Source of the DNA: a virus
Taxonomy: Duplodnaviria > Caudoviricetes
IMG/VR virus record: IMGVR_UViG_3300012663_001011
Coordinates: 1 to 54,168 of that record
Strand: one strand, 5' to 3'
Length of the DNA: 54,168 nt
Below are positions 6,193 to 28,837 of this stretch, one piece after another. The stretch's first letter is position 1; each line of letters starts with the position of its first letter. The position numbers were made by a program, and so were the translations under genes. A model generated the notes under the pieces. It was not told the DNA's origin. It did no database searches and worked only from the letters and a program-made list of their open reading frames with translations.

Positions 6193-7011
6193 ATGTCGAT
6201 ATACAATGATCTACTACACAAAGGTTTTTGTGTAGTAGAAAATCTAGTAGACAACTCGTTGTTAGAATTACTCAACAACGATTTTAATTTAATTAAGAAT
6301 TTTCCTGTAAGTAAACACTATCCAGTATTGCCTGTAGGAAAAAAACTTCCAGTAACTGATTTGCTAAACAAAGTAATAGACCCATTAAGCGAGTCTATTA
6401 AAAACAACACTGGCATATCAACTAATGTTCATCCAACTCCGGTTTATTTTTCTATAAAGCACGGGGTAAATTTTGATTGGCACCAAGACCACGAAAGTTT
6501 TTATCAAACTGGTGACCACTCAAATTATCTCAATATCTATATTCCTATATACAAAACCGATCCTGCATTATCAAATGTATGCGTGATAAACTTTGAAAAA
6601 TTGTTAGATCTAGATCCTAGTCTTGCTTTTCTAAAAGGCTACGGCGCAACACGATTTTCCTGCAAAGATAACAAAACAATAATAAAAGACGACAATACAG
6701 ATAAAGAAACTGTTTTAAATTTTAATATAAATCAAATAGCAGATTGCCCTAATCTAAAAGTAGGCGATGCCCTAATTATGAGAGGCGATTGTATTCATAG
6801 AACTCAAGATACATTAACAGATCGAGTATCTATATCAATAAGACGAATGGACTGTAATACTATAATCAACAAATCAAATTTTGACATTAACAGTCAGGTA
6901 AAAGAATTTATTTTCAAGAATAGCGAAGACTACTATCAGAAACTAATAAGTAAGTTTAGTAATAACGATGAGATTAAGCTAGGGGATTTACTTGATTTAC
7001 ATACCAGATGA
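6193..7011 (+). CDS. PhyH-like Fe(II)/2OG dioxygenase, 272 aa
   Basis: WHQD...GDALIMRGDCIHRT...RVSISIR; start moved to ATG 6193, right after the previous stop. Confidence 0.75.
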   Translation: MSIYNDLLHKGFCVVENLVDNSLLELLNNDFNLIKNFPVSKHYPVLPVGKKLPVTDLLNKVIDPLSESIKNNTGISTNVHPTPVYFSIKHGVNFDWHQDHESFYQTGDHSNYLNIYIPIYKTDPALSNVCVINFEKLLDLDPSLAFLKGYGATRFSCKDNKTIIKDDNTDKETVLNFNINQIADCPNLKVGDALIMRGDCIHRTQDTLTDRVSISIRRMDCNTIINKSNFDINSQVKEFIFKNSEDYYQKLISKFSNNDEIKLGDLLDLHTR

Positions 7012-7816
7012 AAAAGCTCTACAAGAAAGAGAGAAAGAAAAAGCAAACGCTGATAAGTTTATAGAATTTATATCAGAGCAGCGCAAACAGCAGATTGGAT
7101 TATACGGAGCTGCCGGAGCTCAAAGGCCTTCTGATCTAGAAAACAAGTACGGAAAATATTTGTTTGTTCCGTTGGCGCTGCCTATATTTGAAGTGCCGGA
7201 CAAAGAGCATTTCTTTGCTTGGTGGAGTTCTCATATGGCTATCACTAAAAAGCTAGGCGGCGATGCAGTTATGAGTGGGTATGGTATAACTCCGTTTGAG
7301 ACCATAGACATTGTAAATGAAATTGGAAATCAGTGGTGGGAAGCAAACAATCAGCGAGAAAGTTTTAAAAGTGAATTTCCAAAACTATGGCAACAGTTTA
7401 ATGACTATCTACCATTTGATAAATTACTACGGTTAACCTTTTGGTCTAGTAGACACGCTATTCAAGAGCATAGAGACAGTGCAGAATTTATGGATGCACC
7501 TGGGTCTTTGAGAGTAATGCTGTATGATAACAATCCCGAAGAAACATTGTATGTATTCGATAACCCGCTAAGTCCCTTTGAATCAGGGGAACCTCATATG
7601 TTACCTAGAGCACCAGGCACTAACTCTTTTGTATGGAATAATCTAAGAGTCAAACACGGTAGCATTTATAATCCAGGGCATAAAAAAGTACTCGCGTTTG
7701 CGGCTGGATTGTTTAATATCGATAAGTATGAAGAGCTAATGGAAAACAGTTTAAATCTTTATAAAGATTACTGTATTACCAGTAAATACTCTATAGAACA
7801 ATACGTTAATCTCTAA
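6992..7816 (+). CDS. Putative Fe(II)/2OG oxygenase-fold protein
   Basis: EHRD...VKHGS facial-triad pattern; AGGGGA SD before TTG. Confidence 0.55.
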   Translation: MIYIPDEKALQEREKEKANADKFIEFISEQRKQQIGLYGAAGAQRPSDLENKYGKYLFVPLALPIFEVPDKEHFFAWWSSHMAITKKLGGDAVMSGYGITPFETIDIVNEIGNQWWEANNQRESFKSEFPKLWQQFNDYLPFDKLLRLTFWSSRHAIQEHRDSAEFMDAPGSLRVMLYDNNPEETLYVFDNPLSPFESGEPHMLPRAPGTNSFVWNNLRVKHGSIYNPGHKKVLAFAAGLFNIDKYEELMENSLNLYKDYCITSKYSIEQYVNL

Positions 7817-7817
7817 T

Positions 7818-8411
7818 ATGAAAATCTTTAATTGGTTTAAAAAGAAAGAAGTTGAAAACATATTCCACCAATGGGTTAAATTCCCTGTGCAACCTGGCGT
7901 TGACTTGTTTAAGGAATTTCCAGAACATACTGATTGTTCAGGACACGTACAAGTTCCTGTGGAAATGTTAGATAAAGAGTTTGTTTATTTTTTTAAACAG
8001 TTCGATATTGCACCGGATCTGTGGGAAGCATTTTATACAGCGCCGTTTGGCAAGATTTGGGTACACACAGATACCGCAGGATTTGGCGATGCTTGTAAAA
8101 TAAATTGGACCTGGGGTTCTAATCTAAGTGAAACTCGATGGTGGGATGTAAAAGATCCTACTAAACTAGAACCTATTGTTACAGACTTTGGTGTAAATTA
8201 TTTACGAGCAGAAGAAGAAAACTGTAGATTGCTGTATAAGCAAACAATGACTAAACCGAGTATTGTTCAAGTTGGTTTACTTCACAGCACATATAACCCA
8301 GATGTAACTGGAAGGTGGACTTTATGTTTGCCGCTACTAACTAAAGATAAAGTAGATCGATACAGTTGGGTAGATACTCACGAAATGTTCAAAGATTATT
8401 TAGACAAGTAA
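7818..8411 (+). CDS. Putative Fe(II)/2OG oxygenase-fold protein
   Basis: VHTD...LHSTYN...RWTLCL pattern. Confidence 0.6.
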   Translation: MKIFNWFKKKEVENIFHQWVKFPVQPGVDLFKEFPEHTDCSGHVQVPVEMLDKEFVYFFKQFDIAPDLWEAFYTAPFGKIWVHTDTAGFGDACKINWTWGSNLSETRWWDVKDPTKLEPIVTDFGVNYLRAEEENCRLLYKQTMTKPSIVQVGLLHSTYNPDVTGRWTLCLPLLTKDKVDRYSWVDTHEMFKDYLDK

Positions 8412-9079
8412 TAGAAAGTAAACCCGCCCCATTTTCCACGGAATAAACTGAAAAAATCTACACCTAGCCCAAAAATGCTAGGTGTTACCTTGAGTAACTT
8501 CCATTCGTTAAAATAGCCCAGTGCTTGTCTATTTGTAAAGCTCAATTCAAACGGAATACTAAGTTGATCTAATTCAAAACACTCAGTTACAAACTTAGGA
8601 CGAATTTTACGTTGAATCCATTTTCCGTATTTGTTGTATAACCCTACCATAATATATTTGTGAGAAAAACTTTTTAATTTTTCAACAGCGCCGTCAAAGT
8701 CAGGCATATGATGAATAGATCCGTTACTAAGAACTAAATCAAATGTCTGAGTTGACTCAAACTCAAAAAAGTTTTGCTGAACCCATTTGACGTTTTTTAA
8801 TTTCAACTCTTTGCTTATTTTTTGACCGTGGTTAATTGTATCGCTAAAATCTACGGCAACAATTTCTATGTTGGGGAAATTGTATGCTATTACATTAGTG
8901 ATAAACCCACTACCGCAGCCAATGTCGAGAATAGTAGAAATATTGTGTTCTTCTATAAATTTTAAATATCGTTCGTATATAAGATAGTCGCCGTGGTCGA
9001 CAACTTCGTCAGATGAATACAATCCGGGAAAAGTTACTGTGTCGTAAAATTCTTTAATTTCTGTTTCTTTAGGAGTCAT
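8396..9079 (-). CDS. Class I SAM-dependent methyltransferase
   Basis: ILDIGCGSG, VAVDFS, FDLVLSNGSIHH, GLYNKYG. Confidence 0.88.
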   Translation of the reverse strand: MTPKETEIKEFYDTVTFPGLYSSDEVVDHGDYLIYERYLKFIEEHNISTILDIGCGSGFITNVIAYNFPNIEIVAVDFSDTINHGQKISKELKLKNVKWVQQNFFEFESTQTFDLVLSNGSIHHMPDFDGAVEKLKSFSHKYIMVGLYNKYGKWIQRKIRPKFVTECFELDQLSIPFELSFTNRQALGYFNEWKLLKVTPSIFGLGVDFFSLFRGKWGGFTFYYLSK

Positions 9080-10155
9080 AGTAAATCTTTAAATTTAAAT
9101 GGCGGCTTAATAAACCCAGAATGTTTTTCAAGTTTCATAATTTCACGTACTTGTTTTCTATGTTCTTTAGCATATTTCTCTTGTGCAAATGGCTCATAGA
9201 AGGTATCTAATAAATGATCATAGGTGTGTTCTAATCTATATATTTTTCTATTATTAGTTTGACCAACACGTCTATGCAATGTAATGCTATTATCAAATGT
9301 CATAAAATCGCCATCCTGTGTGTATCGATGATCATAAATATTATCTTTTGAAAATAGATTTTTACTTATTTCTTTAAAAATATCAGTGCTCTCTTTGTCT
9401 GTGGCATCTTTGATTTTATAAAAAGAATGAGGAGTAAAGTGTAGTCCTTTAATACCACCCGGACTAGTTACAACCATTGGTATTTCGGTTTCATCTATAG
9501 GGCACATTTTATACCTAAGCACGGCTTCTTCTGCAGGCCTAAACGGTGGAATAACATCTGCACTAACATAACGATGTAGCACAATCATATTGTTCAATTC
9601 TGACCTAAAACTCTCTGTAACAGATTCATAGTAGTCTGCGGTATTAACAAATCCAGTAGCAGTACCTACAACATTTTCAGCAGCCAATAAACTAACTGCG
9701 TGTTCAAATACTAGTTTACCGCTAGAGTGCATATGCCAGTCTAACTCTTGTCCGCCGTATAGTCCATAGTCTCCGTTTGCATCTTTTGTTGAACTAAAGA
9801 AATTTACACTTTTTCCGTTGTCAGTAACTTCGCTGGCTTGATGTAAAATATCAAGGACATCTTTGTCTGTTTGCTCTATAAAAGGCAAGTCGGCAATAGC
9901 GGCAGCTTGAAATGTTTTCCAATCTATTTTGTATTTTTTAAGAAGTTCGTATTTAAGTCCCCAATGTTCTGGACCCCATTGATGTATAAGTTCCGAAAAC
10001 TTGTTAACACTACAGTTGCTTCCTCGAACAATAGTAACTAGATTTTTTAAATGAAGTTGGCCTATTTCGGACCATTCTTCTGCTGTTAAATTATCAAGAT
10101 CTAAATCATCGATAATAATACCATAGTTGCCTACAGGAAATTTAGTTATTTTCAT
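9076..10155 (-). CDS. TauD/TfdA-family dioxygenase
   Basis: N-terminal GIIIDDLDL; DWHMH; C-terminal GDFMTFDNSITLHRR...R typical of TauD. Confidence 0.8.
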   Translation of the reverse strand: MKITKFPVGNYGIIIDDLDLDNLTAEEWSEIGQLHLKNLVTIVRGSNCSVNKFSELIHQWGPEHWGLKYELLKKYKIDWKTFQAAAIADLPFIEQTDKDVLDILHQASEVTDNGKSVNFFSSTKDANGDYGLYGGQELDWHMHSSGKLVFEHAVSLLAAENVVGTATGFVNTADYYESVTESFRSELNNMIVLHRYVSADVIPPFRPAEEAVLRYKMCPIDETEIPMVVTSPGGIKGLHFTPHSFYKIKDATDKESTDIFKEISKNLFSKDNIYDHRYTQDGDFMTFDNSITLHRRVGQTNNRKIYRLEHTYDHLLDTFYEPFAQEKYAKEHRKQVREIMKLEKHSGFIKPPFKFKDLL

Positions 10156-12086
10156 ATGCCAATTACCCGTGCTGTTAAGAAATTAGACTTTGTATAAGTT
10201 TCCATTTGTGATAACATATAATCAACAAGTGGTCTTTCCTTTTCAGGTTCGTTAAATTGTCCAATAATAGGATTGCTATAGTTAATATATCTGAACTTTG
10301 TAAATCTGCTGGTGTGTTTATTCGTAACTGTAATAAACTTGTCCATCTCACGATCAATATTTTTAGCAGACAAATAGTCAAATTCTTTCAACAACCAATT
10401 TTTTATGTACTCTCGGCAATCTTCAAATTCATAAAAGAATTCCAACATCACTGAACTTTGCAAAGGGGCAGTACAATGTGGGAATTGTATAGATAAGTTA
10501 CTCACTTCGCTATCTGGATCGTAATAATCTTTAAACTGTTTATCTACTTTAGCCATATAGTTAGTTAACGCTGGGCCACAAGCATCGCTCTTCAAAAATT
10601 CTCTATAAAACTTTTTAACAAAATCACCGTAACCTAGATTTGACTTTTTAAAAATTGTCTTTAGTGTTTTTTCCAATAATCCTGTTGTCCAGAAACCTCG
10701 TTGGATGCTAAATGCAATCCACATTTCTTTGTAATCTTCTTTGGTGTAGCTGTATGTTTCTACAACAACTTCACTTTTTCGTAGCGTTGAATTAGAAGTC
10801 TGCATATTGTTATACTTGTTAACTGTCTGCATTTTCATACGCTGTCTATATTCTTTACCGTACGATGGTGTTTCGGGAAGCAAGTGCCAATTGTAAAGAC
10901 AGATGTCCATATCGTGTGAAGCATAGACGTTTATTTCGTGATACCATTTTTCAGTAGTTATACCAGGCAGTCCAGAAATGCATTCAGCATAGCTAGAAAA
11001 GCCATACATTGTTTTAAGATGTTTGGCTAGCTCGACGTGCTTTTCAAAAGAAATATCACTTCGTTTAATATTGTCTAAGACAGTTCTGTCAATACTCTGT
11101 ATACTTGCTTTATAGCTTAGATCCCAAGTTAAATTGTTCTGGGCATCTAAGTCTAAGATTTGTTTAATATATTCTGTATGTTTGTCTGATTTAGCGAAGC
11201 CACCAAAATACAAATGGAACAACATAGGATTTGCTTTTTTTCTTTCAGCAATATACTTCATTATGTCGATATCTCTATCTCGCATAATTCCAAAGTTAGC
11301 ATCGCACAAGAAAACATAGACGCACTTAGTAGCTTCTAAAACGTCAATGTCTTTTTTGACATTTTCAATAGATTTCTTAATGACCTTAGTTCCAGTTCCT
11401 CCGCCCCAATCACAAAATGTGCAGCTATACGGACAGCCTCGTGTTGTTTCTAGTTTTCCGTTAATAGGGGTAGTAGCCATTGCATTTCTAAACAACTGAT
11501 TAATTTCATCAGCCACTTCCATCATAACTTCTTTTTGCATATCGTATGCACTAAAGTCCCATTTAAAATCCATCTTTGGACTAGATTTTTTACTCTTAAA
11601 AATTGTTTTTTTATTTTTACTAGGATAAACAACTTCGCGAACGTTATTCCAATCTACTGTATTATCTTCTCGCAAATTGTCAAGAATATCAGCAATAGTT
11701 AATTCTCCGTATTCAGCGCCGTCTAAGCTAGCATCTAAGAAGGAATATTTTTCAAACCAATCAGCTTCGTGTTTAAAGTATTGTTGGGGACCGCCACTGA
11801 TAACTAAACAGTTTGGGAAGGTTTCTTTAACCCACTTAGCAACTTCAAGGCATTGGATGTCGTTCCAAATGTACATACTAATTCCAAATACATCTGGTTT
11901 AGTTTCTAGCAGTGTTCTTTTTAATTTTTCTACGTCAAATTCGTAGTTAATTCTTGGGTGTACCCAATTGTATTCATCTTTGCGTTCGCCGTATAGTTCG
12001 TAATAACTTTTACAACTAGCCCACAGCAGAGGTAGATAAATTCCGGATGTTGAATCCGGAATATACATAACAACGTTTTTTTTCAT
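10152..12086 (-). CDS. Cobalamin-binding radical SAM protein, 644 aa
   Basis: B12-binding-like N-terminus (PDVFGISMYIWN, ISGGPQ, YGE), ETTRGCPYSCTFCDWG (CX3CX2C), DANFG. Confidence 0.88.
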   Translation of the reverse strand: MKKNVVMYIPDSTSGIYLPLLWASCKSYYELYGERKDEYNWVHPRINYEFDVEKLKRTLLETKPDVFGISMYIWNDIQCLEVAKWVKETFPNCLVISGGPQQYFKHEADWFEKYSFLDASLDGAEYGELTIADILDNLREDNTVDWNNVREVVYPSKNKKTIFKSKKSSPKMDFKWDFSAYDMQKEVMMEVADEINQLFRNAMATTPINGKLETTRGCPYSCTFCDWGGGTGTKVIKKSIENVKKDIDVLEATKCVYVFLCDANFGIMRDRDIDIMKYIAERKKANPMLFHLYFGGFAKSDKHTEYIKQILDLDAQNNLTWDLSYKASIQSIDRTVLDNIKRSDISFEKHVELAKHLKTMYGFSSYAECISGLPGITTEKWYHEINVYASHDMDICLYNWHLLPETPSYGKEYRQRMKMQTVNKYNNMQTSNSTLRKSEVVVETYSYTKEDYKEMWIAFSIQRGFWTTGLLEKTLKTIFKKSNLGYGDFVKKFYREFLKSDACGPALTNYMAKVDKQFKDYYDPDSEVSNLSIQFPHCTAPLQSSVMLEFFYEFEDCREYIKNWLLKEFDYLSAKNIDREMDKFITVTNKHTSRFTKFRYINYSNPIIGQFNEPEKERPLVDYMLSQMETYTKSNFLTARVIGI

Positions 12087-12175
12087 CTGTAGATGTAAGG
12101 TGATCTTTTAGAAAGTTCTTTAATTTTTTTACGATATCTAATTCTAATATAAATGGATCTTAAGAATGTAAGCAT
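12083..12175 (-). CDS. Unannotated 30-aa basic peptide MLTFLRSIYIRIRYRKKIKELSKRSPYIYR
   Basis: Fills the gap exactly: start overlaps the SGNH gene end; TGA overlaps the radical SAM ATG (ATGA). Confidence 0.65.
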   Translation of the reverse strand: MLTFLRSIYIRIRYRKKIKELSKRSPYIYR

Positions 12176-12987
12176 TTTATTTTCTCCGCGATGTGTGTAG
12201 CAACAATGGCGTGAGCCTCTTGATCAAAATGATATCTCGGTAGTTGAGAATTAGGCGGTACTAAATCCTTTAGTGTTGTTCCTAGTACATTATAATTATG
12301 ATGTTTACTAGCAAAGTGCTGACTTAGCCCATCACCAAACTGAGGTTCTTTGTCAGACTTAATACAAACTTTTTTAGTTTTGTCTACACCTGTTTTAATA
12401 TCAAAAAATGCCCAGTCTACAATATCAATGTCGCACCAAACTATGTAAGTTGGGATTCCTTTTGCTCGCAGGGCATCGGCTGCGTAATACATAAACAATG
12501 TATCGTCTATTGCTAGCATTGATTCATTGTAAAATTCAAAGAACATTTCTTTTAAAAGATTGTTCTGTGTTTTTGTTAATCTATCGTCAAAGATAGTAGG
12601 ATGTACTACAAAACTACCAACAGTTTTGTCAGTTTCTGTTTCTTTATACTTAACCCAAAATCTATTGTGTGTTGTAAATTGCAATATAACTACATTGCCT
12701 TCTTCGTAGTGATCTTCAGTGAAGTGCGAAATTGCTCTACACGCAATTTCTTTATTTGACATTCCTGGCGAACCAAAATTATCAAATTCAACTCCTAGAT
12801 TTTCTGCTACTTTTGCAGGAAAGGAATGTTTGTAATTGTAAGCGTTGATGTCTTCTTTTTCGAATTGTTTTGCAACCTTACGTGCATCCTCGAAAGATAA
12901 GGACTTATAATTAGGAACGTGTGCTTCTTCGAAAAGCTCATTGCCTCCCGTAATACTGCAACCGAAAAAAGTGAGTTTTTTTATCAT
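12160..12987 (-). CDS. SGNH/GDSL hydrolase-like protein
   Basis: FFGCSITGG block I, NFGSPGMSN, C-terminal YHFDQEAH. Confidence 0.65.
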   Translation of the reverse strand: MIKKLTFFGCSITGGNELFEEAHVPNYKSLSFEDARKVAKQFEKEDINAYNYKHSFPAKVAENLGVEFDNFGSPGMSNKEIACRAISHFTEDHYEEGNVVILQFTTHNRFWVKYKETETDKTVGSFVVHPTIFDDRLTKTQNNLLKEMFFEFYNESMLAIDDTLFMYYAADALRAKGIPTYIVWCDIDIVDWAFFDIKTGVDKTKKVCIKSDKEPQFGDGLSQHFASKHHNYNVLGTTLKDLVPPNSQLPRYHFDQEAHAIVATHIAEKIKCLHS

Positions 12988-13839: not shown

Positions 13840-14478
13840 ATGTCAAAGATAACCCTCTTTACAAGTGGTAGCACGACAATACCAAAATTAATAACGCACA
13901 ACAATATTGAGCAACATATACAGCGTTCAATTAAAGAAATTGGTCTAACTTCTCAAGATCGAGTGCTTAATGTTTTTCCTGCTAATGTAATTGCCAACTA
14001 CACAGTAACAGCAATGCCTGCTTATGTAGCTGGTGCAGAACTGTTTACTGCAACATTTGAACCGTATTCGTACATTAAAATCTTCAATGAATTTAAACCA
14101 ACTTATATATCATTGATACCCCGCCACTATGAAATACTTTCTAAGACCAAGGAGTGGAATAACTTCGATATGAGTTCAGTTAGATATATGGTAACGGGCA
14201 GTGGTAATGTCAGTCAACAAATGATCAACGATTTCAGGGATCGAGGAGTTAAAACAGTAGCGAACTGGTACGGTATGACCGAAATGCCTCCCCCTGTGTT
14301 TATAGGGTATAACACAGAGTCGTTTGACTTTACAGCTAAAGACGGTTATAATGTAGACTTTACAGACGAAGGCGAATGTGTTATTAACGGATTTCATACC
14401 AACGACTTGTTTGACGTGACACGTAAAATATTTTTAAAAAGGAAAGTTACCTCAAATGGTAATACCTGGAAAACCTAA
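13840..14478 (+). CDS. Truncated AMP-binding (ANL adenylation) enzyme, 212 aa
   Basis: Begins directly at the A3 loop FTSGSTTIPK; YGMTE (A5); FHTND (A7-like); lacks the N-terminal third and the C-terminal lid. Confidence 0.75.
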   Translation: MSKITLFTSGSTTIPKLITHNNIEQHIQRSIKEIGLTSQDRVLNVFPANVIANYTVTAMPAYVAGAELFTATFEPYSYIKIFNEFKPTYISLIPRHYEILSKTKEWNNFDMSSVRYMVTGSGNVSQQMINDFRDRGVKTVANWYGMTEMPPPVFIGYNTESFDFTAKDGYNVDFTDEGECVINGFHTNDLFDVTRKIFLKRKVTSNGNTWKT

Positions 14479-19381: not shown

Positions 19382-19385
19382 CAAG

Positions 19386-21123: not shown

Positions 21124-22264
21124 ATCATTTGAGGATTTTTATCGAGAGGCGGAAATTAAACACTTGTTGTTTTTTGAAAATAATAATACGTTAATAAGCC
21201 CGCCGTTTTGCACAGATAATTGCAAAGAATATAGCAACGTGCTTACATACGACCAAGGTAACGTGTCTGCTATGTCAGTAGATACACAACCGGCAACCAG
21301 CAAATACAATTCAATGGCCGTGGTGGAAGATAGTGTATGGTTTGCCCCTTACGGAATCTGGGATCACTTCAATACAGTGCTAGAAATAAAAAACGGAATC
21401 CCAATAAGTCATACTATAGACAGCACAGCCAAGGGACAATTTTATAATCTAGCTACTAATGGCACTAGTGCGTTTGCTGCTCCATTAGGATACGAAGAAG
21501 TTAGTTTCGGCCTTTTTATTAAAAACGGACAAGTAAAGCAGATCCCATTCCCTGTAACAGGTGAGCTTAAAAAACATATGGGTACTGTTTGGTGCAATGG
21601 GTATTACTGGAGTCCGCCGAGAGGGGAAAGTTATAACTATAATCAAATTTTAAAATTCAATCCTGATACAGAAGAATTAAATTTTATAGAAGCAGATTTA
21701 CCTAAGGCAAGACGAAAATACAGCGACTTCATTGTTGCTGGAAATAAACTATTTGCACTGCCATTAGGTCGAGACCTTGAGCTATGTCATATGCTTATAG
21801 TAGATACCGACACCGATACAGTAGAGTTAGTTAAATTGCAGATTCCCGACTTTGTAAAAAAATATAATGCAGGTGTTCTAATAGGCGATGTGATTATAGC
21901 AATGCCGTATGGACACAAAGAAGATGGTACTGCTAACTATGGACTGATTTTCAACACCATTACACACGAACATACAACGTTTGACATATCTCAATCTTTT
22001 GGTGGAAAATATAGATTTAGAACAGGTATAGAGTTTAATGGAAATGCAGTATTTTTTCCTGCAGGGTCACCTAATGTCAAACTTATAGCAGTAGACACGT
22101 CTGGAAATATAATATTTGATAAACTATTTCAAGAGTATGTGTTAGGAAGACCTGTAAAATATAATAATAACTTGATCACTATTGCATATCACGTTTTATC
22201 AAAACAACATTACGTACTCAGTATGAATGCTGAGTTTCAATTCGAATTTACAAAACTATGTTAA
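21113..22264 (+). CDS. Beta-propeller-like repeat protein, 383 aa
   Basis: VWFAPYG, AFAAPLG, YWSPPRG, LFALPLG, IIAMPYG, VFFPAG repeats; paralog of previous gene. Confidence 0.7.
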   Translation: MSYKSFEDFYREAEIKHLLFFENNNTLISPPFCTDNCKEYSNVLTYDQGNVSAMSVDTQPATSKYNSMAVVEDSVWFAPYGIWDHFNTVLEIKNGIPISHTIDSTAKGQFYNLATNGTSAFAAPLGYEEVSFGLFIKNGQVKQIPFPVTGELKKHMGTVWCNGYYWSPPRGESYNYNQILKFNPDTEELNFIEADLPKARRKYSDFIVAGNKLFALPLGRDLELCHMLIVDTDTDTVELVKLQIPDFVKKYNAGVLIGDVIIAMPYGHKEDGTANYGLIFNTITHEHTTFDISQSFGGKYRFRTGIEFNGNAVFFPAGSPNVKLIAVDTSGNIIFDKLFQEYVLGRPVKYNNNLITIAYHVLSKQHYVLSMNAEFQFEFTKLC

Positions 22265-23352
22265 AATGTTACGCACCGTGGCACGCTTTAAGTATTAGAT
22301 TTAACGGAGATGTTGCGCCAGACTGTGTCTACACAGGTCGCTTTGGCAACATATTAACTGACCCGTTGCCTAAAATACTGAGTAGTATTGGATTAGAAAA
22401 AACAAGGAACGACATCAAGAACGGAATACTGCCACCGGATTGTTCGTCGTGCATACAAAAAGAACATCATAACAATAATAGTCGTAGGGTATTCTTTCAG
22501 CATCACCTTAATCCAATGGTCCCTGACTTCGATAACCCGCAATCAGACATTTACTTTTTAGAATTTAATATGAGTAACGTGTGCAATTTAAAATGCAGAA
22601 TGTGTTGCGGGATTAATTCCACAGCTTGGATTAAAGAAGATATTAAACTTGTAGAAAAATATAAAATTTTTCGACCAATCACTGATAAAGAATTCGGATA
22701 TACTAATGTGCCTGCAACAATTGTAGACAACTTATTCAAGTATCCTGAGTATTTTAAGAATCTACAGTATGTAAACATCAAAGGCGGCGAACCTTACTTA
22801 GAGCCAGCTAATAAAAAAATAATGAAGTACCTAATTGATATGGGTATTGCTAAAAATATCACCTTAGATATTGGTACCAATGGTACTATTGTAGATAAAG
22901 AGTTTGACAACCTTGCTTTGCAATTTAAAAAAACAATATGGCACGTTAGCATCGAAGGCATTGGAGAGATGTACAATTATATTAGAGGTGGAGGTAATTT
23001 TACTTTTGAACAATTAGAAGATAATCTCAAAGAGTTTGCTAAATTTGATCGCGTAATTTTAGCAGGTACTGTGACACCATATAACGTCTGTCACTTAAAC
23101 AAAGTTAGGGACTGGTTTGAAACTGTTAAACAAGACAACTTTGAATTATTCTTTACAAATATGGTAGTAACACCATCATATCTAAATCCTTGTGTGTTAC
23201 CCGATTATATATTAGAAGGTACAGGATATAAACACGACCCTGCACTAGACGGTGACCTTCAAATGTTCATCGATTACACTAAAGCGTTGGATGAAATTAG
23301 AGGAACTAATGTGTTAGATGTGTGCCCCGAATTAGACACGCTCTTTACGTAG
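22258..23352 (+). CDS. Radical SAM protein with N-terminal SPASM/twitch-like domain
   Basis: CYAPW...PDC...CSSC; CNLKCRMC; KGGEP; TNGT. Confidence 0.88.
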   Translation: MLKCYAPWHALSIRFNGDVAPDCVYTGRFGNILTDPLPKILSSIGLEKTRNDIKNGILPPDCSSCIQKEHHNNNSRRVFFQHHLNPMVPDFDNPQSDIYFLEFNMSNVCNLKCRMCCGINSTAWIKEDIKLVEKYKIFRPITDKEFGYTNVPATIVDNLFKYPEYFKNLQYVNIKGGEPYLEPANKKIMKYLIDMGIAKNITLDIGTNGTIVDKEFDNLALQFKKTIWHVSIEGIGEMYNYIRGGGNFTFEQLEDNLKEFAKFDRVILAGTVTPYNVCHLNKVRDWFETVKQDNFELFFTNMVVTPSYLNPCVLPDYILEGTGYKHDPALDGDLQMFIDYTKALDEIRGTNVLDVCPELDTLFT

Positions 23353-24240
23353 ATAGATATCACTTAAACACGGACACTTCTTAGCATCGCATACAATAGG
23401 TTCAGTAGGCAATGTGTAAGTTTTTAAATCGCCGATTGGGCCGCCTTGCTTACAGTCCGACCTGTACATATCACCCCACATATCAATGTTAACCATATGA
23501 AGACCTCCCCAACAAGTCCACCCTTTGTAGTTGTTAAGGTCATTTAAGATAATATCGTTTGCTGTTATTTTTTTATCATCTAATAATATGTCACCGCGAT
23601 GCAATTTTTGATCATCTAAGACTTTAAAATAAGGCCAGTTCTTTATAAATGCAGTTTGCTCACTGCTGTATTCTGTGACTTTATTTGAAATGCCGTGTAT
23701 GCTAGCAGACTTGTCTAGGATTAACTTAGGCCATACTACCATATTTTCCGAACCGTTGTATAATTTTTCTGCTATATCTACAAGTTCATTAAACTTTTCA
23801 GGCAGCATCATTAGATTAACAAATACCCCACACTTCATAACCTTAGCAATTTCAATGAAGTGATCCACGTCGGCATAATCGGGATGGTAGCTGATTATCA
23901 TTCCGTCTGTGTACGGACTTATCTTTTCAAAATACTCAACTGACTGACTACCGTTAGTTAAGAAACTAAATGTGTGGCCCTTCGACTTCACTGTTTTTGC
24001 TAGGTCAATAAAATGTTTCCAGTATGTTGGCTCACCGCCGCTGATTCTGTAGCATAATTCTTTTCCTGCAACATTAAAATTTTCAACAAAGTTCTTAACT
24101 GTTGGCCAATCAGGATGCCCTGTAGTTCCGTTATGTAAATCATCTGGACAATATTTGCATTTATAATTGCATTTATTAGACAGTGTCCAACTAACTAAAA
24201 ACCAATTCTCTTTGGTAGGATCAGCGTATGATATTTTCAT
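23332..24240 (-). CDS. Radical SAM protein with C-terminal Cys-rich domain
   Basis: CNYKCKYC; SGGEPT; TNGS; CWGG...C...CDAKKCPC. Confidence 0.88.
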   Translation of the reverse strand: MKISYADPTKENWFLVSWTLSNKCNYKCKYCPDDLHNGTTGHPDWPTVKNFVENFNVAGKELCYRISGGEPTYWKHFIDLAKTVKSKGHTFSFLTNGSQSVEYFEKISPYTDGMIISYHPDYADVDHFIEIAKVMKCGVFVNLMMLPEKFNELVDIAEKLYNGSENMVVWPKLILDKSASIHGISNKVTEYSSEQTAFIKNWPYFKVLDDQKLHRGDILLDDKKITANDIILNDLNNYKGWTCWGGLHMVNIDMWGDMYRSDCKQGGPIGDLKTYTLPTEPIVCDAKKCPCLSDIYLRKERV

Positions 24241-24893
24241 TCGGCAATAGTGTTATTCATTACGAGACCGTGTGTACGCTCATTAAGTTTTACTGTGAGT
24301 ATAAGCGCATAGAGATTGTTACTGAAACTAAACACACTGTGATCTAACTGAGTATTGGCAAAATACAACCAGCCAGCTTCCGGGTAGATTGGTTTGCCGT
24401 CAAACATCTGTACATAGTTCTCTGGGCTGCATTTACCAAACACAGCTAGCAATCTAAAATATTCTGGACTTACTCCGTGAAAATCTCTATGAGGAGGAAA
24501 GAACCCTCCTTGGTCTACACGCAACAAATGAACGCGACCAATGTCAGGTGCAAACACATCTACAAGATTTTTAATGTCCGGAATAGCGTGATATACTTCT
24601 GTTGGGGTTGTAAAGTTTTCTTCTTTTAGCTCAACATTATGATATTTTTGCATATAGCCAAAACTGTTGAGATGGTAATTGTCCATTACATCACCAGTAT
24701 GGCTAGTTACTGGTAGTCCCCATCTATTGTTGTGCGAATCTTTTTTAACATTGTAAGGACACCAATTATCTTTAAACTGTTGCAGTTCTGCTTCAACTCC
24801 GTGCGGATTGAGTTTCCATTTTGTTTTAACAAACATACCCAAGTGAACTAAACTATTCCATAGTGCAGCACGTTCTAATTCTTCATTGGTCAT
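24237..24893 (-). CDS. AspH-like Fe(II)/2OG oxygenase
   Basis: GGFFPPHRD...YFANTQLDHSVFS. Confidence 0.7.
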   Translation of the reverse strand: MTNEELERAALWNSLVHLGMFVKTKWKLNPHGVEAELQQFKDNWCPYNVKKDSHNNRWGLPVTSHTGDVMDNYHLNSFGYMQKYHNVELKEENFTTPTEVYHAIPDIKNLVDVFAPDIGRVHLLRVDQGGFFPPHRDFHGVSPEYFRLLAVFGKCSPENYVQMFDGKPIYPEAGWLYFANTQLDHSVFSFSNNLYALILTVKLNERTHGLVMNNTIAE

Positions 24894-24897
24894 AGTA

Positions 24898-25884
24898 TTA
24901 ATCCTTAAATTGAATGTTTAATTTATCTATTTGTCCGCATTGCTTACTGCATTGCTTGAGAGGACGATCTTTCCACGTTGCTTCTACTCTGCTAAAGTAG
25001 TCAGTATTAAAAATTTCCGATAACGTTTGAGTTTTAAGACTGTGGTTTTTAAAATTGTTATCTAGAAAATCCACCTTTGCTGGAGAAATAGGAGGTACTC
25101 CTGTAAAGTCTAGCCAGCAACACGGAGAAACTTCTCCTTGAGAATTTATATAGATACTTTTTTCAGCAAGTGCTTTACAATTAATTACTTTATTTTCAGT
25201 TAGATTGTATTCTTGAAAGGATTTAGTTATACTCTGGCTTTTTATAGAAGGGTATAAAATATGTGTAGTCCTTCCGTCTTTGTCTAAAACGTGATGGCAA
25301 TCATCTCTAAATCTAGATGTGTTCTTAGAATAAAATTCCTTAAACCCTAGGTCAATGCTCATCTGCTTACATTGATTTACCTGATGCAAGTTATGTTCGA
25401 ATACCAACATATCCCATATAGCATAACCTCCATTGTTTATAAATGTTGTTGCGTTGTCGATGATCTTTTTCCAATCAGTGCCTACTCTATACAAGGCGTG
25501 AGTATCTTCAAGGCCATCAATTCCAAAACGTATGCTTACTCCTAGCTCTGCTAACTCTTGCCAAAAGGCTTTAGATCTAGCACTGCCGTTAGTGTTCATA
25601 CTGAGATTAATAGTAGGGTTTATTTCTCTAAGATATTTAAAAATTAAAACAGTGTCCGAAGCAACAACCGGATCTCCTAAATTGCCGCACATATATAATC
25701 GAGTTAACTGCTTAAGGAATTCAACAGAGAACCATTCTTTGAATGTATCTAATGTCACTTCATCAATGACCACCCAAGGGTTTTCAACACCGCCTTGCAG
25801 GTTTCTTGCACACATAGGACAGCTGGCCTGACATCTACTGGTAATTTCCAAATGCAATGTACGAATATCACTTAGACTATACAT
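24898..25884 (-). CDS. Radical SAM protein with SPASM/twitch domain
   Basis: CQASCPMC; CGNLGDP; TNGS; C-terminal C...PCC...CSKQC. Confidence 0.88.
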   Translation of the reverse strand: MYSLSDIRTLHLEITSRCQASCPMCARNLQGGVENPWVVIDEVTLDTFKEWFSVEFLKQLTRLYMCGNLGDPVVASDTVLIFKYLREINPTINLSMNTNGSARSKAFWQELAELGVSIRFGIDGLEDTHALYRVGTDWKKIIDNATTFINNGGYAIWDMLVFEHNLHQVNQCKQMSIDLGFKEFYSKNTSRFRDDCHHVLDKDGRTTHILYPSIKSQSITKSFQEYNLTENKVINCKALAEKSIYINSQGEVSPCCWLDFTGVPPISPAKVDFLDNNFKNHSLKTQTLSEIFNTDYFSRVEATWKDRPLKQCSKQCGQIDKLNIQFKD

Positions 25885-26487
25885 TTATTTTTTACCAATT
25901 AACATAAATCTTTTATACAATGGTAGATCAAGTTCACCGGCATACAAAATAGTTTCTAATTCTGACTGAGATTTAAATTCTTCTAAGTCTGCTGCAATCC
26001 TAACGTGTTCTGGTATTTTATAATCGTTACTCTGCAGAACTACTAAACTGTTATGAGGTAGACCAGATAGCCAAAGATCATATTGATCTTGCGTTATGTG
26101 TTCAAAACTTGTGTTAATAACAATGTCAGCATCGCTTCTAAATGTACACATATCGGCGGTAATGGCTCGAAACTTGCCTGCCTCAATTTCCATTTGATTC
26201 ATAGTTAACGCAATATTCTGACATTCTGGATCAATGTCAATGCTATTAATATGGCTTATGTACATATCGCTTTGAAATAACATACTGGCTAGCGTACCTA
26301 CCCAGCCGCCGTGTATATCAATAGTAGGCCATTCTTTGTGATGGCTTTTTAGTTTAGTTAATTCTGTAATCAGCCATTCCTTGCTTAAAATTTGTCCTCG
26401 CCAAAACGCATCCATAGTACGCATAGGATCTTTACTTTGGCGTATGGCCCGCATCCAGTGATGTAGGTGTTCTGTATCTATGTTCAT
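25885..26487 (-). CDS. Class I SAM-dependent methyltransferase-like protein
   Basis: IHGGWVG, SIDID, ADM, INTSFEH Rossmann motifs. Confidence 0.7.
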   Translation of the reverse strand: MNIDTEHLHHWMRAIRQSKDPMRTMDAFWRGQILSKEWLITELTKLKSHHKEWPTIDIHGGWVGTLASMLFQSDMYISHINSIDIDPECQNIALTMNQMEIEAGKFRAITADMCTFRSDADIVINTSFEHITQDQYDLWLSGLPHNSLVVLQSNDYKIPEHVRIAADLEEFKSQSELETILYAGELDLPLYKRFMLIGKK

Positions 26488-27869
26488 AATAGGTGTTCCA
26501 ACTCTGGAAATATTAGTTTTGCATCAGTTGCCCTAATACTATCTAAGTTAGCAGCATATTCTTTAAAGTCGGGCAACAAATGACTATGATCTTCTGCTAG
26601 TACAAATTTTAAAATACCTTCCCAACGTTTCCAACCTGCAGGATTATCGTTCCAAAAATAATCATCCTGTCTATAATTATCCCACAGCCATTGTTTAAAT
26701 TCTTCAAAGTCTTTAACTAATTGATCTTTATCTTCCTTTGGTAATATACGGGCAGATAAAAATGTAGGAATGTATAACATATGAAAATTAATAATGCCGC
26801 CTCCGGCTTCATTGCCAGCTAGGAAAAATTTATTAATTTTTTTAAAGTTTTGAGTGATCTTCCACTTGGCAAAATCTATAATGTGTTTGATATTAAAAAT
26901 TTGCACAGCACAGGCAATTCCAACTTTAATACTATCTGGAGTATTGTCTAGTTTTTCTAAAGCAGCCATAATTTCTGACCACTCAACTGGATAACGAATA
27001 TAATGATTTCTGTCAGTGATGGCATCTATACTGAATGCCACACGCACTTCTTTGAAATGACTCCATAGTTCAATAATATTGTCGTCTACTAACACGCCAT
27101 TTGAATTGTAACGTACTGTGATTTTTTTTGAATATCCTCTACGTACAATTTCTTCTAAGAATCGCTTGTGTTCTTTGATCATTAATGGCTCACCACCAGC
27201 AAAATACAATTGCTTGATGTTAGGGATTTGTTCAAACACTTCTTCCCAAAGCTCGGGACGTTCGTACCAATAATTGTTAAACGTATTTTTATCCCAGTTT
27301 ATTTGTTTTAGAACGATTGTGCTTTTTGTTTTTTGTATTAATTGATCATAGTCCTGAGTCCATCTACTGCTGTCGTGTGGTGTACACATTACACATTTTA
27401 AATTACAAGTATGTCCTAGTCGTAGATCTAGATATCTAATAATTGGATTTATAATACCATCTGCTTGTGTTTCCGCAATTAATTCTGCTAGGTCGATATC
27501 TTCTTCTTGCCAGTATGTTGTTTCCCAAACACGCTTACTGACCATTCCGTTAGCTTCTTCCTCAAAGCATTTGGCGCAACTTAAGGGGATTTTTCCCTGC
27601 ATCATTGTTGTACGAACGTCACGCATATATTCGTTATTAATGGCACTGGTAATTGTGTCAGTACCAAAGTTAGCTGGCTGGCCATTTTCTTTTTTAACCA
27701 GTCCAGCATCAAGTATACCTTTAGTCGCTTGGCTGGCATTGCTACCGCAGCATAGTCTAGCATCACCGTTAGGGCGGGTAGCTACGTGAATCCACGGTAG
27801 AACACAAAAAGTTGGAGTGCCCGACTTCTCTTCTATAATTTTAATTTGTTTTTTTAATTGTTCTGACAT
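26484..27869 (-). CDS. Twitch-domain radical SAM protein, 461 aa
   Basis: FCVLPW...LCC...CAKC; CNLKCVMC; AGGEP. Confidence 0.88.
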   Translation of the reverse strand: MSEQLKKQIKIIEEKSGTPTFCVLPWIHVATRPNGDARLCCGSNASQATKGILDAGLVKKENGQPANFGTDTITSAINNEYMRDVRTTMMQGKIPLSCAKCFEEEANGMVSKRVWETTYWQEEDIDLAELIAETQADGIINPIIRYLDLRLGHTCNLKCVMCTPHDSSRWTQDYDQLIQKTKSTIVLKQINWDKNTFNNYWYERPELWEEVFEQIPNIKQLYFAGGEPLMIKEHKRFLEEIVRRGYSKKITVRYNSNGVLVDDNIIELWSHFKEVRVAFSIDAITDRNHYIRYPVEWSEIMAALEKLDNTPDSIKVGIACAVQIFNIKHIIDFAKWKITQNFKKINKFFLAGNEAGGGIINFHMLYIPTFLSARILPKEDKDQLVKDFEEFKQWLWDNYRQDDYFWNDNPAGWKRWEGILKFVLAEDHSHLLPDFKEYAANLDSIRATDAKLIFPELEHLL

Positions 27870-28837
27870 TTTGGTATCTTTGAATCTGCGCTACTTACAC
27901 AGCTAGATGTAATGCAACTTTGGGGTTGTTTAAATAATTCAAATTGTTCCAGGGTTCCCAACGGTTGATCGTGACAACTGTAGCTACGTTTCACTTCATT
28001 ACCTCTTATTATAACACTTTGATATCCAGAATTACAAGTCCAACCTTGGAATTTATTAAATCCAAATGCGTTAAATCTTTCTGCTTGATCAAACAGATGT
28101 TCTGTTCCATCTTGCTCGTATAAAGCAATTTGGTAAACATCTGAACCTTGTGATCGTTGGGGGAATCCTGTCTGCATTTTGTGTATCATATCTTCAGTGT
28201 AACCATTTACCACAAAACTAGCAGTTGGGTCACTCATAGGCTTTAGTGTTACACTGATTCCTCGTTTATACAATCGTTCGCAACGTTCATACAATTCATA
28301 AAACTGAGCAGGCACCATTACTTGATTGATAGTAACGTGTACTAGTTCATATTGTAACTGTAAGCACTTGTCACCAAACTCTTGTTCTTTGGCAAACTCT
28401 GAATGAAAGCTAGCAGTAATACTCCTTCTCTGCAACATCTCAGTGTTCTTACACCAAGTGTTCCACCATTTGCTTCCTGGACTCAAATTGGTAGTCATAT
28501 GGATACTTTGGTAAGTGCTTTCTTTTTCGTCTAGATGTTTAACCAAATCATTTAACTGTTTGTATGCTGTAGGCTCACCACCGCTGAACGACCAATGGAA
28601 CTGGTTAAACCCATTAGCTCGTGCTTGACGCTTAATCTCGTCTACAGTAGATTTATATACTTCAAGCGATTGGTGATCCAATTTGTCACTGCGGGCATAT
28701 GGCCAGCAGTAACTACAATTATAATTACAAAATCTGCCCAATATCCAACTGGTAGAAAATAATGGGCGGTCTAACATTGTGCGTTGTCCAAACCGAACAA
28801 TATTTTGAAACGGTATTGATTGAAAATTAGTTGTCAT
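27854..28837 (-). CDS. Radical SAM protein
   Basis: CNYNCSYC; SGGEPT; C-terminal CNSG...C...CITSSC; related to 23332-24240. Confidence 0.88.
   Translation of the reverse strand: MTTNFQSIPFQNIVRFGQRTMLDRPLFSTSWILGRFCNYNCSYCWPYARSDKLDHQSLEVYKSTVDEIKRQARANGFNQFHWSFSGGEPTAYKQLNDLVKHLDEKESTYQSIHMTTNLSPGSKWWNTWCKNTEMLQRRSITASFHSEFAKEQEFGDKCLQLQYELVHVTINQVMVPAQFYELYERCERLYKRGISVTLKPMSDPTASFVVNGYTEDMIHKMQTGFPQRSQGSDVYQIALYEQDGTEHLFDQAERFNAFGFNKFQGWTCNSGYQSVIIRGNEVKRSYSCHDQPLGTLEQFELFKQPQSCITSSCVSSADSKIPKCQNN

Follow-up and report, generated by a model that had tools for sequence, protein, structure and literature searches.

The viral DNA stretch analysed here (IMG/VR record IMGVR_UViG_3300012663_001011, positions 1 to 54,168; its full 54,168 nucleotides are called the window below) harbors a 22.6-kb island of putative tailoring enzymes at positions 6193–28837, which on sequence comparison is a mosaic of three inherited modules and not one cluster. 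Module C occupies 6.2–13.8 kb, module A 13.8–24.9 kb and module B 24.9–28.8 kb. In the reading favored here, with an estimated probability of about 40%, modules A and B would tailor a small molecule or a glycan- or lipid-linked substrate stepwise in the cytoplasm, and module C would form a separate cassette resembling those for ribosomally synthesized peptides with post-translational modifications (RiPPs). The source would be an uncultured freshwater T4-like myophage and the island the enzyme-rich part of a fiber-linked hypervariable region, of the type termed a "host recognition cluster". A first-pass annotation of the window, made from its letters, had proposed a biosynthetic-cluster-like system; a single coherent cluster is not supported, as the three modules are distributed differently among relatives (module A in 45 loci, module B in 71 loci and module C in seven contigs).

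Modular architecture and conservation in phages and Bdellovibrionota

The island is about 99% coding and consists of 26 open reading frames (ORFs) of 142–644 aa and one ORF of 30 aa, laid out in six blocks of alternating strand (Table 1; genes and proteins are referred to by their positions). Its G+C content is 0.36, compared with 0.40 in the remaining window. Three convergent gene pairs overlap by 16–26 nt and several same-strand neighbors by 4–23 nt. All 26 proteins are predicted to be soluble by hydropathy, the highest-scoring 19-residue stretch reaching at most 1.56, compared with 2.77 for a membrane protein of the same window. In agreement with the first-pass annotation, Pfam returned no replication or structural family for any of the 26 ORFs, and PHROGs returned none for the ten ORFs without a Pfam match.

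Related viral loci were collected from IMG/VR with two queries. The AspH-like protein 17994–18665 retrieved 45 module A loci (66–82% identity, contigs up to 360 kb), and the radical S-adenosylmethionine (SAM) enzyme with an N-terminal twitch domain (N-twitch) at 26484–27869 retrieved 71 module B loci (53–80% identity). The loci were taken with 10-kb flanks, many of them ended by contig ends, and the gene counts (at least 50% coverage) are lower bounds; several loci stem from the same contig or from near-identical genomes, and locus counts do not equal independent lineages. In module A of the relatives the genes follow the order fiber, mini-ANL, GNAT, (Trp halogenase), AspH-like proteins with phosphatase and propeller, a 490-aa unknown, AspH-like cupin, N-twitch radical SAM, mini-kinase, two propellers, N-twitch radical SAM, radical SAM and 24237-type oxygenase, kept with few rearrangements. 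Module B loci usually contain extra radical SAM paralogues. Module C, comprising the SGNH-like protein, the 30-aa ORF, the B12 methylase, the TauD enzyme, the methyltransferase and the 7818, 6992 and 6193 proteins, is confined to the closest relatives, and all three modules are joined in the window and in its nearest relatives (L073, L075, L076/78/81, L080, L120). Five large relatives, including two genomes of 358–360 kb that are 100% complete according to CheckV, hold 8–13 radical SAM and 2–7 AspH matches each. The co-occurrence of these families in relatives, which the earlier proposal predicted, is thus observed in conserved order in both sets of loci. The catalytic residues are kept as well in the ortholog alignments, namely HxD...H(...R), C-x5-R-S, HxDxxxxN...DWD and TSGST..PK with YGMTE.

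The window ORFs from 10.2 to 17.9 kb recur with 99–100% protein identity on a further 7.5-kb IMG/VR contig (L072), whose record name carries a giant-virus prefix of a metagenome-assembled genome (MAG), in contrast to the T4-like structural genes of the window, and may reflect mis-binning.

The uneven distribution of the modules would also be expected if the island were a hyperplastic dumping ground of unrelated auxiliary genes, each acting alone on a different host metabolite. Such a lack of any common pathway would fit the strand, which alternates six times, the relatives, which gain and lose paralogues and add other enzymes, and the description of the region as hypervariable in the available part of PMC7029224. 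Furthermore, iron- and 2-oxoglutarate-dependent (Fe/2OG) oxygenases are not restricted to the island, since one gene (38400–39056), and weakly a second (2–661), lie outside. However, order and content within the modules are kept down to 40–50% protein identity. The paralogues of the window are 22–32% identical while the relatives hold closer homologues of each, hence the duplications are old and each copy has been kept. In addition, gene ends overlap as given above, and phages and Bdellovibrionota keep one and the same four-gene core together. A collection of independently acting genes is therefore regarded as distinctly unlikely.

The bacterial side of this sharing, which involves predatory bacteria, emerged from a scan of one prokaryotic genome per species with the N-twitch alignment, which yielded 77 loci. 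Most of their titles refer to Bdellovibrionales, Bacteriovoracaceae, Pseudobdellovibrionaceae or Oligoflexia MAGs, the best matches being 47–48% identical. Homologues of the other module B proteins accompany the N-twitch gene, with 27854–28837 found in 13 loci (30–53% identity), 24898–25884 in 15 and 25885–26487 in seven; overall, the Bdellovibrionota homologues of module B proteins are 29–53% identical. The 24237–24893 oxygenase has homologues in two of the bacterial loci. N-twitch paralogues are arrayed there in tandem, with at most six or seven copies side by side. The Bdellovibrionota genomes are mostly metagenome-assembled. The loci represent real chromosomes, as one carries rpoD and dnaG and some contigs measure 1.9–3.0 Mb. 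Five of these genomes (G007–G011; behind L125, L139, L155, L128 and L124) contain 15–27 matches each to the N-twitch family NF033640, 9–16 of them above the cut-off, whereas in 14 control genomes no match exceeds it. Twenty neighbors from three Bdellovibrionota loci include two GT2 glycosyltransferases, a carbamoyltransferase (286 bits), a fatty-acid desaturase, a flavin adenine dinucleotide amine oxidase, rpoD, dnaG, a GH114 hydrolase, a weak QueC/Asn-synthase-like PP-loop protein and two AspH-like proteins, one above the cut-off (32 bits) and one below it (18 bits).

The window resembles this family, which is expanded in Bdellovibrionota, in that both of its N-twitch enzymes score above the cut-off and possess a BtrN-type twitch domain. 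It differs from the bacterial loci in its partner enzyme: in a quick, unrooted tree of the 27854 family all 34 phage rows form one clade (SH-aLRT 100), placed beside two Bacteriovoracaceae rows (support 94). This topology fits one old exchange, the direction of which is not fixed without a root. The link to Bdellovibrionota is hence a lead on gene flow or on the phage host and not proof of either. Neither the expansion of N-twitch radical SAM enzymes in Bdellovibrionota nor the present island is described in the literature searched. No recurrent precursor-like small ORF was seen beside the bacterial N-twitch genes among 68 inspected by eye. In a Paenibacillus locus, a distant N-twitch homologue (27% identity) has directly upstream of it a 128-aa ORF (L159:9515-9901) that by eye resembles an acyl carrier protein, which hints at a carrier-tethered substrate in that lineage.

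Enzyme families and active-site motifs

All six radical SAM genes of the island exceed the PF04055 gathering cut-off of 29.5 bits (35–54 bits) and contain the CX3CX2C motif, so the number given in the first-pass annotation stands. They represent four types, namely two N-twitch enzymes, one SPASM enzyme, two paralogues with a Cys-rich C-terminus (23332 and 27854, 26% identical) and one cobalamin-dependent enzyme. The N-twitch enzymes belong to NF033640, in contrast to the other four, which score 23–68 bits with this model and are not members. In the N-twitch domain the SPASM/twitch match covers residues 4–65, and profile residues 3–72 align with the twitch residues 185–257 of BtrN, an aminoglycoside-pathway enzyme; membership explains the order "SPASM before core" in 22258–23352. 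To our knowledge, the family has no member with a known substrate.

The cobalamin-dependent enzyme 10152–12086 aligns with TokK (7kdx, E 3e-34, aligned residues 17–538) and CysS (9n1b, E 5e-32), which places it in class B. These two are small-molecule methylases. A B12-binding radical SAM protein had been recognized before, and the similarity to TokK and CysS bears this out, although the Pfam match of the B12-binding domain lies below its cut-off (19.3 versus 32.1 bits). The best-scoring model is NF033712 of the KedN5 subfamily, at 144.9 bits against a cut-off of 700, and the enzyme is not a member.

The position of the cluster motif bears on substrate recognition. Five of the six radical SAM enzymes have it at residues 18–155, with at most a twitch domain ahead of it, so that a RiPP recognition element would not fit; the B12 enzyme has it at residue 218, behind the cobalamin domain. 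Pfam detected neither a PqqD-like nor any other recognition-element domain in the 26 island ORFs. An A-type Fe–S carrier is encoded in four of the five large relatives and fits an investment of the phage in radical SAM enzymes.

With respect to the ten Fe/2OG oxygenases counted earlier, six pass their Pfam cut-offs, three are probable and one (6992–7816) shows a motif only, as it has no Pfam, PHROG or PDB-profile support and reaches 0.3% in hhalign against the AspH-like proteins. Those passing are the TauD enzyme and five Asp_Arg_Hydrox (PF05118) proteins with 29–48 bits (cut-off 22.6), in which the HxD...H triad and a distal Arg are conserved in the orthologs. The AspH-like paralogues of module A are 24–32% identical to each other, and homologues of 17994 in relatives are 33–82% identical. 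The fifth AspH-like protein, 13101–13838, sits with module C in relatives, beside the fiber gene. The profile matches of 24237–24893 are proline 3- and 4-hydroxylases. In two relatives, two AspH-like domains are fused in one protein of about 405 aa, a tandem double hydroxylase (L115:11328-12554 and L118:11090-12304).

The truncated adenylation enzyme reported previously is a mini-ANL, supported by its partial PF00501 match and conserved short orthologs. It corresponds to the middle part of an adenylating enzyme of the acyl-CoA-ligase type, with its real start at ATG 13840 (the window ORF has a TTG-extended form). Twenty of the 23 distinct listed orthologs start no more than a few residues from TSGSTxxPK and measure 210–225 aa, and three have longer upstream extensions; both TSGSTxxPK and YGMTE are conserved. 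Among solved structures, feruloyl- and fatty-acyl-CoA synthetases come nearest (E 2e-13). A canonical ANL member has a full N-terminal domain of about 400 aa and a mobile C-terminal domain with the catalytic Lys, which the protein lacks; it could nevertheless work like an adenylating core. Longer or fused mini-ANL forms were not found, which is weak evidence.

The adjoining protein 14456–15028, previously listed as unknown and without a Pfam match, is predicted to adopt a GNAT fold. All Foldseek matches shown are acyl- or acetyltransferases, nearly all of GNAT type (best E 3e-6, TM 0.45–0.59), and on the modeled fold the protein can be assigned to this family, which clusters in 62 loci. The three propeller-like proteins noted before are likewise upheld, as fold model, structural matches and hhalign agree. 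The AlphaFold2 (AF2) model of 19906–21123 (pLDDT 88, pTM 0.90) finds its best compact structural matches among 8-bladed propellers (BamB, NirS and the designed Tako8, TM about 0.58), none of which is a specific functional relative, and the family is virus-only in the ESM Atlas.

The remaining assignments are retained in part. One of the two methyltransferases, 8396–9079, is solid, the other, 25885–26487, is a language-model lead. The mini-kinase keeps a conserved HxDxxxxN..DWD motif with a borderline RIO1 match. The CX5R phosphatase retains its motif in orthologs but has no Pfam match and hits a PHROG of unknown function only. The SGNH-like motif of 12160–12987 was seen by eye, and neither Pfam nor PHROGs gave a match. 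The names of 12160–12987, 25885–26487, 6992–7816 and 17569–17997 therefore come from motifs or weak leads and are to be taken as provisional.

Table 1. Features of the island and of its surroundings in the window. Occurrence is given as the fraction of the 45 module A or 71 module B loci; nt, nucleotides.
Feature	Positions	Strand	Module	Evidence	Occurrence
Fiber-like protein, bounds island	4692–6191	+		Mtd_N N-terminus, Pfam 41.9 bits	18/45 A
PhyH-like Fe/2OG candidate	6193–7011	+	C	PF05721 19.6 bits, below cut-off of 22	One homologue, in L073
HRD...H-motif protein	6992–7816	+	C	Motif invariant in 6 sequences	
AspH-related Fe/2OG, probable	7818–8411	+	C	H.D...HST conserved; hhalign to AspH-like family 75%, E 2.6e-5; no Pfam match	
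Class I SAM methyltransferase	8396–9079	-	C	Methyltransf_31 65 bits	
TauD-family Fe/2OG dioxygenase	9076–10155	-	C	PF02668 74.5 bits; orthologs 75–77% identical	
TokK/CysS-like cobalamin-dependent (class B) radical SAM C-methyltransferase	10152–12086	-	C	CPYSCTFC motif; PF04055 37 bits	
Conserved 30-aa basic, Tyr/Ile-rich ORF	12083–12175	-	C	In 73-nt gap between SGNH-like gene and B12 methylase	
SGNH/GDSL-like protein	12160–12987	-	C	N-terminal FFGCSITGG, by eye	
AspH-like Fe/2OG oxygenase	13101–13838 (ORF also given from 13080)	+		PF05118 48.4 bits	
Mini-ANL	13840–14478	+	A	PF00501 72 bits, profile positions 168–330 of 384; starts at TSGSTxxPK	34/45 A
GNAT-fold acyltransferase	14456–15028	+	A (also in B-type islands)	AF2 pLDDT 92	34/45 A
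Beta-propeller, third paralogue	15003–16250	-	A	hhalign to 19906 family 83%	19/45 A
AspH-like Fe/2OG	16284–17009	-	A	PF05118 29–37 bits for the four in module A, all above cut-off	
AspH-like Fe/2OG	17006–17584	-	A	As above	
CX5R phosphatase-like protein	17569–17997	-	A	CxxGxxRS (C.kG.sRS) conserved in 14 sequences	35/45 A
AspH-like Fe/2OG	17994–18665	-	A	As above	45/45 A (query, by construction)
AspH-like Fe/2OG	18665–19384	-	A	As above	
Mini-kinase, RIO/APH-like C-lobe	19409–19852	+	A	RIO1 22.7 bits, cut-off 22; HxDWxLSN...DWDN conserved in 29 sequences	45/45 A
Beta-propeller, PYG repeats	19906–21123	+	A	hhalign to 21113 propeller 98.8%	45/45 A
Beta-propeller, PYG repeats	21113–22264	+	A	hhalign to 19906 propeller 98.8%	34/45 A
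N-twitch radical SAM	22258–23352	+	A	NF033640 226 bits, cut-off 170; CNLKCRMC motif	An N-twitch enzyme in 45/45 A
Radical SAM, Cys-rich C-terminus	23332–24240	-	A	PF04055 44.6 bits	A 23332-type enzyme in 45/45 A
Proline-hydroxylase-like Fe/2OG	24237–24893	-	A	1e5r E 8e-4, 4p7w E 0.003; PPHRD...HS invariant	29/45 A
Radical SAM-SPASM	24898–25884	-	B	PF04055 and CX3CX2C	64/71 B
Methyltransferase-like protein, 200 aa	25885–26487	-	B	Language-model (Atlas) lead only; no PDB-profile match	62/71 B
N-twitch radical SAM	26484–27869	-	B	NF033640 384 bits, cut-off 170	71/71 B (query, by construction)
Radical SAM, 27854-type	27854–28837	-	B	PF04055 and CX3CX2C	54/71 B
tRNA-like element	28900–29012	+		113 nt; 8-bp acceptor stem, GGTTCGAAACC T-arm, 3' CCA, two extra hairpins	
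Hc1 histone-H1-like protein	29055–29246	+		63 aa; PF07432 51 bits	
2OG-FeII_Oxy_5 match, weak	2–661	+			
KdsB-like cytidylyltransferase	662–1321	+		99 bits	
QueD/PTPS homologue	37877–38455	+		93 bits	
2OG-FeII_Oxy_3 oxygenase	38400–39056	+		27.4 bits	
KdsA-like DAHP_synth_1 protein	39222–40046	+		247 bits	
Glycosyltransferase	40040–40837	+			

Candidate substrates and competing explanations

In the favored reading the enzymes would act in the cytoplasm during infection, as an assembly line on a low-molecular-weight or glycan- or lipid-linked substrate. The Fe/2OG enzymes of AspH-, TauD- and proline-hydroxylase-like type could carry out C–H hydroxylation, the twitch/SPASM radical SAM enzymes radical C–H chemistry and the B12 enzyme C-methylation. 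The mini-ANL and GNAT proteins may provide acid activation followed by N-acylation, and the mini-kinase and the CX5R phosphatase phosphorylation and dephosphorylation. The product would be a specialized metabolite or a surface decoration tied to host recognition or superinfection.

Indirect evidence leans towards a small molecule or glycoconjugate as the substrate of modules A and B and towards a peptide as that of module C. For modules A and B this preference derives from five of the six radical SAM enzymes being too short ahead of the cluster motif to accommodate a RiPP recognition element, from the lack of any such domain, from nearest relatives of small-molecule type for the mini-ANL (to which the GNAT gene is adjacent), the B12 enzyme and the twitch domain, and from the absence of a conserved small ORF in both modules. 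It derives further from the glycosyl- and carbamoyltransferases and the desaturase beside the bacterial cassette, from the Trp halogenase (265 bits), desaturase (49.6 bits) and further oxygenases added in phage relatives, and from the KdsA-like, KdsB-like and glycosyltransferase genes of the window. The latter three, all located among fiber genes, suggest a phage-encoded route to a sugar of the 3-deoxy-D-manno-octulosonic acid (Kdo) type.

For module C, the candidate substrate is the product of the 30-aa ORF, a small gene already recognized in the first-pass annotation. Its start overlaps the end of the SGNH-like gene and its stop overlaps the ATG of the B12 methylase (ATGA). The ORF is found at the same place in all seven related contigs with the B12 enzyme, with 70–85% aa identity, whereas its neighbors are less conserved (39–59% and 63–71%). 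Among eight sequences (28 pairs) the mean non-synonymous rate (dN) is 0.155 and the mean synonymous rate (dS) 1.30, giving a dN/dS of 0.12, and conservation together with this ratio identifies the ORF, on sequence grounds, as a real small gene. The C-terminal 17 residues of the strongly basic peptide are almost invariant and its hydrophobic N-terminal half is variable; Cys and Gly are absent. In a screen of all intergenic ORFs of 20–70 aa in 123 viral loci four recurring families were obtained, the 30-aa ORF being the sole one judged credible, and no credible conserved ORF of this kind was found for modules A and B, which are not RiPP clusters by this measure. The three other families are located at cut locus edges beside the mini-kinase and were judged artefacts of a truncated propeller gene.

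The most attractive interpretation makes the 30-aa product a candidate precursor of, or partner for, the enzymes that would act on it, namely the B12 methylase, the TauD hydroxylase and the methyltransferase, to whose genes the ORF is translationally coupled; as a whole, module C probably forms a RiPP-like cassette of its own. Bottromycin and the proteusins are examples of follower-type RiPP pathways that include B12 radical SAM C-methylases. Module C resembles these in the short peptide gene that stands just upstream of its enzyme genes (class B methylase, Fe/2OG hydroxylase, SAM methyltransferase, hydrolase), and in the variable hydrophobic N-terminal and invariant C-terminal halves of the peptide. 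It differs in that YcaO, epimerase, protease and recognition element are missing, in the basic composition of the peptide without Cys or Gly, and in the methylase, whose nearest solved relatives act on small molecules. The peptide makes module C directly testable.

Several observations weigh against tailoring of a small molecule or glycoconjugate. No scaffold enzyme (nonribosomal peptide synthetase, polyketide synthase or nucleotidyl transferase) was detected within the island by Pfam, as the first-pass annotation had also remarked, and the only candidate substrate identified, the 30-aa product, is a peptide. Characterized PF05118 members act on proteins (EGF domains) or on lipid A and are not known to act on free metabolites. 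The three conserved propellers, having no catalytic relative, fit none of the assigned steps. T4-like phages broadly conserve gene order, and a shared pathway therefore cannot be deduced from synteny alone. The Bdellovibrionota neighborhood sample amounts to three loci only, and the public runs matching the sampled words of the island (see below) include no RNA run. A link to Kdo is not obligatory, since the complete relative G002 has neither KdsA nor KdsB and in G005 both are located far from the cluster; the idea of Kdo tailoring is weakened accordingly, with KdsA present in three and KdsB in two of the five large relatives.

The main rival is post-translational modification of proteins, in which the AspH-like, radical SAM, kinase/phosphatase and GNAT enzymes would decorate the fiber, the propellers or host proteins, comparable to Asp/Asn hydroxylation of EGF domains or to anSME-type maturation. 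The island adjoins a fiber gene both in the window and in 18 of the 45 module A loci, PF05118 is named for protein Asp/Asn hydroxylases, and three conserved, virus-only and non-enzymatic propellers lie inside module A. Among the solved structures nearest to the radical SAM enzymes is anSME, a protein-modifying enzyme without a recognition element, and the top structural matches of the GNAT protein include ribosomal-protein acetyltransferases. The available part of PMC2938197 furthermore describes beta-hydroxylase operons with tail-collar proteins and collagen-like peptides. On the other hand, three features (B12 enzyme, mini-ANL, twitch domain) speak for chemistry on small molecules, and Bdellovibrionota carry the module B core without a phage fiber, beside glycosyltransferases. 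The propellers, moreover, evolve no faster than the enzymes (43–81% identity, compared with 33–82% for the homologues of the AspH-like gene). Protein modification is consequently considered doubtful.

Nucleic acids as the target, i.e. hypermodification of phage DNA or tRNA in analogy to 7-deazaguanine, thymidine hypermodification or wybutosine, are very improbable. In its favor, known base-modification pathways employ radical SAM, kinase and Fe/2OG enzymes, both ThyX and a QueD/PTPS homologue are encoded nearby, relatives contain a weak PP-loop, QueC-like protein, and a tRNA-like element flanks the island. Yet TGT/DpdA (PF01702) was detected in none of the five large relatives, both complete genomes included, and DNA, which had been listed among the possible targets, is for this reason judged unlikely. 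QueE models score 25–27 bits, their cut-offs being above 200, and of a 7-deazaguanine DNA modification system only the QueD/PTPS homologue is present. Within the island no DNA glycosylase, transferase or TET/JBP family was matched, and ThyX is adjacent in merely 9 of the 71 module B loci.

Returning to the tailoring of a small molecule or glycoconjugate, a bolder and on present grounds unlikely version would have large aquatic phages and Bdellovibrionota share an undescribed multi-enzyme pathway around paralogous radical SAM enzymes with the permuted N-terminal twitch domain, yielding a new class of heavily oxidized and alkylated metabolite or surface decoration. In this phage lineage it would be joined to a RiPP-like cassette whose 30-aa follower-type peptide becomes C-methylated, hydroxylated and methylated. 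If true, a lytic-type T4-like phage would encode a ribosomal natural product.

Should a cultivable Bdellovibrionota strain carry the cassette, genetics would become possible. If the product is a surface decoration or metabolite, one would learn by what chemistry large phages alter the infected cell or the fibers they build, and the N-terminal-twitch radical SAM family would gain a function.

Phage setting and comparison with known islands

The rest of the window is phage-like, with two tRNAs, ThyX, and baseplate and fiber PHROGs of T4 type. A giant protein of 2556 aa carries a T4 gp9/10 N-terminus and shows domain-level matches to fiber-like proteins of cyanomyophages and pelagimyophages over 5–17% of its length. 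The structural proteins are remotely related to those of cultured phages (about 33% identity to PA5oct-like and other large phages). Neither the island nor the rest of the window gave a nucleotide match to deposited phages with megablast, and tblastn of the propeller and the AspH-like protein against 50,697 deposited phage records returned nothing at E 1e-3. A cultured relative is thus not at hand. The closest record (G001), 8.3 kb long, is a fragment that lacks the island. Between 20 and 48% of the island's sampled words are present in seven public runs from five studies, labeled freshwater, lake water or plain metagenome. Four DNA runs gave short contigs over 27–30 of the 30 island bins, which shows presence only.

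Enzyme-rich islands of aquatic T4-like phages have been noticed for more than ten years, none with a known product. In the available part of Iyer et al. (2010; PMC2938197), cyanophage Syn9 is described with an array of ten dioxygenases from several distant families and two Trp halogenases, for which tailoring of amino-acid-derived metabolites was proposed. The window shares with it the aquatic T4-like myophage background, about ten dioxygenases side by side and, in its relatives, the Trp halogenase mentioned above; unlike the array as described there, the present island adds six radical SAM enzymes, propellers, the mini-ANL/GNAT pair and the kinase/phosphatase pair. Since the tblastn search of deposited phages was empty, the AspH-like and propeller proteins are not Syn9 families at the E 1e-3 level.

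A "host recognition cluster" between VrlC and gp14 of pelagimyophages and cyanomyophages, containing fibers, lipopolysaccharide glycosyltransferases and, in some genomes, radical SAM cassettes, is reported in the accessible text of Zaragoza-Solas et al. (2020; PMC7029224), where AspH is also given as a core gene of these phages. As in that cluster, a large hypervariable island with glycosyltransferases and radical SAM enzymes is situated in the structural region by a giant baseplate protein and fiber genes. In contrast, the far boundary (neck gp14) lies outside the window, and the giant protein matches fiber-like proteins of cyano- and pelagimyophages over the small fraction given above. The freshwater genomes in that text are reported without radical SAM genes, whereas the present window is found in freshwater runs. 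In the available part of Nishimura et al. (2017; PMC5332604), a T4-like viral genome of 183 kb from the environment appears with an A-type Fe–S carrier and 12 radical SAM genes, counted as Fe–S proteins only; it agrees with the large aquatic T4-like relatives studied here in its many radical SAM genes and in the A-type carrier (four of five).

Such islands are therefore already known, in the available parts of these three sources (PMC2938197, PMC5332604, PMC7029224) without composition, conserved order or function. New are the resolution into three modules, the four-gene core common to Bdellovibrionota, the mini-ANL/GNAT pair, the virus-only propeller family and the conserved 30-aa ORF. The window thereby gives the problem a concrete shape, as three separable modules with defined orthologs and intact motifs.

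Both boundaries of the island had been described in the first-pass annotation. The upstream one, directly after a tail-fiber gene, is supported by the Mtd_N domain of 4692–6191, homologues of which (27–36% identity) adjoin the mini-ANL/GNAT pair in relatives. At the downstream end, the tRNA-like gene is seen in its T-arm, acceptor stem and CCA, but the element was not called as a tRNA by ARAGORN, by Rfam at the gathering score or by Rfam at E up to 1. It folds with -41.5 kcal/mol (z -2.7), and its 3' part (a third to a half of the element) is conserved upstream of the 27854-type gene in the loci of 13 relatives. Possible identities of the element are a tRNA that is unusual or carries an intron, and a regulatory RNA derived from a tRNA. 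The Hc1 histone-H1-like gene, located between the island and ThyX, is kept in relatives (cluster c53).

Like the Kds genes, the QueD/PTPS and 2OG-FeII_Oxy_3 genes are located among the fiber genes. For two families in relatives, amidinotransferase-like and pyridoxal-phosphate-like readings made by eye were dropped, as Pfam gave no support. Host-like auxiliary genes surround the island at 3302–3769, 3973–4578, 30431–31120 and 41314–42339 (all on the + strand); these four loci comprise a (second) dual-specificity phosphatase-like protein, a metallophosphoesterase, a Bax1-I membrane protein (180 bits) and the ultraviolet endonuclease UvdE (132 bits).

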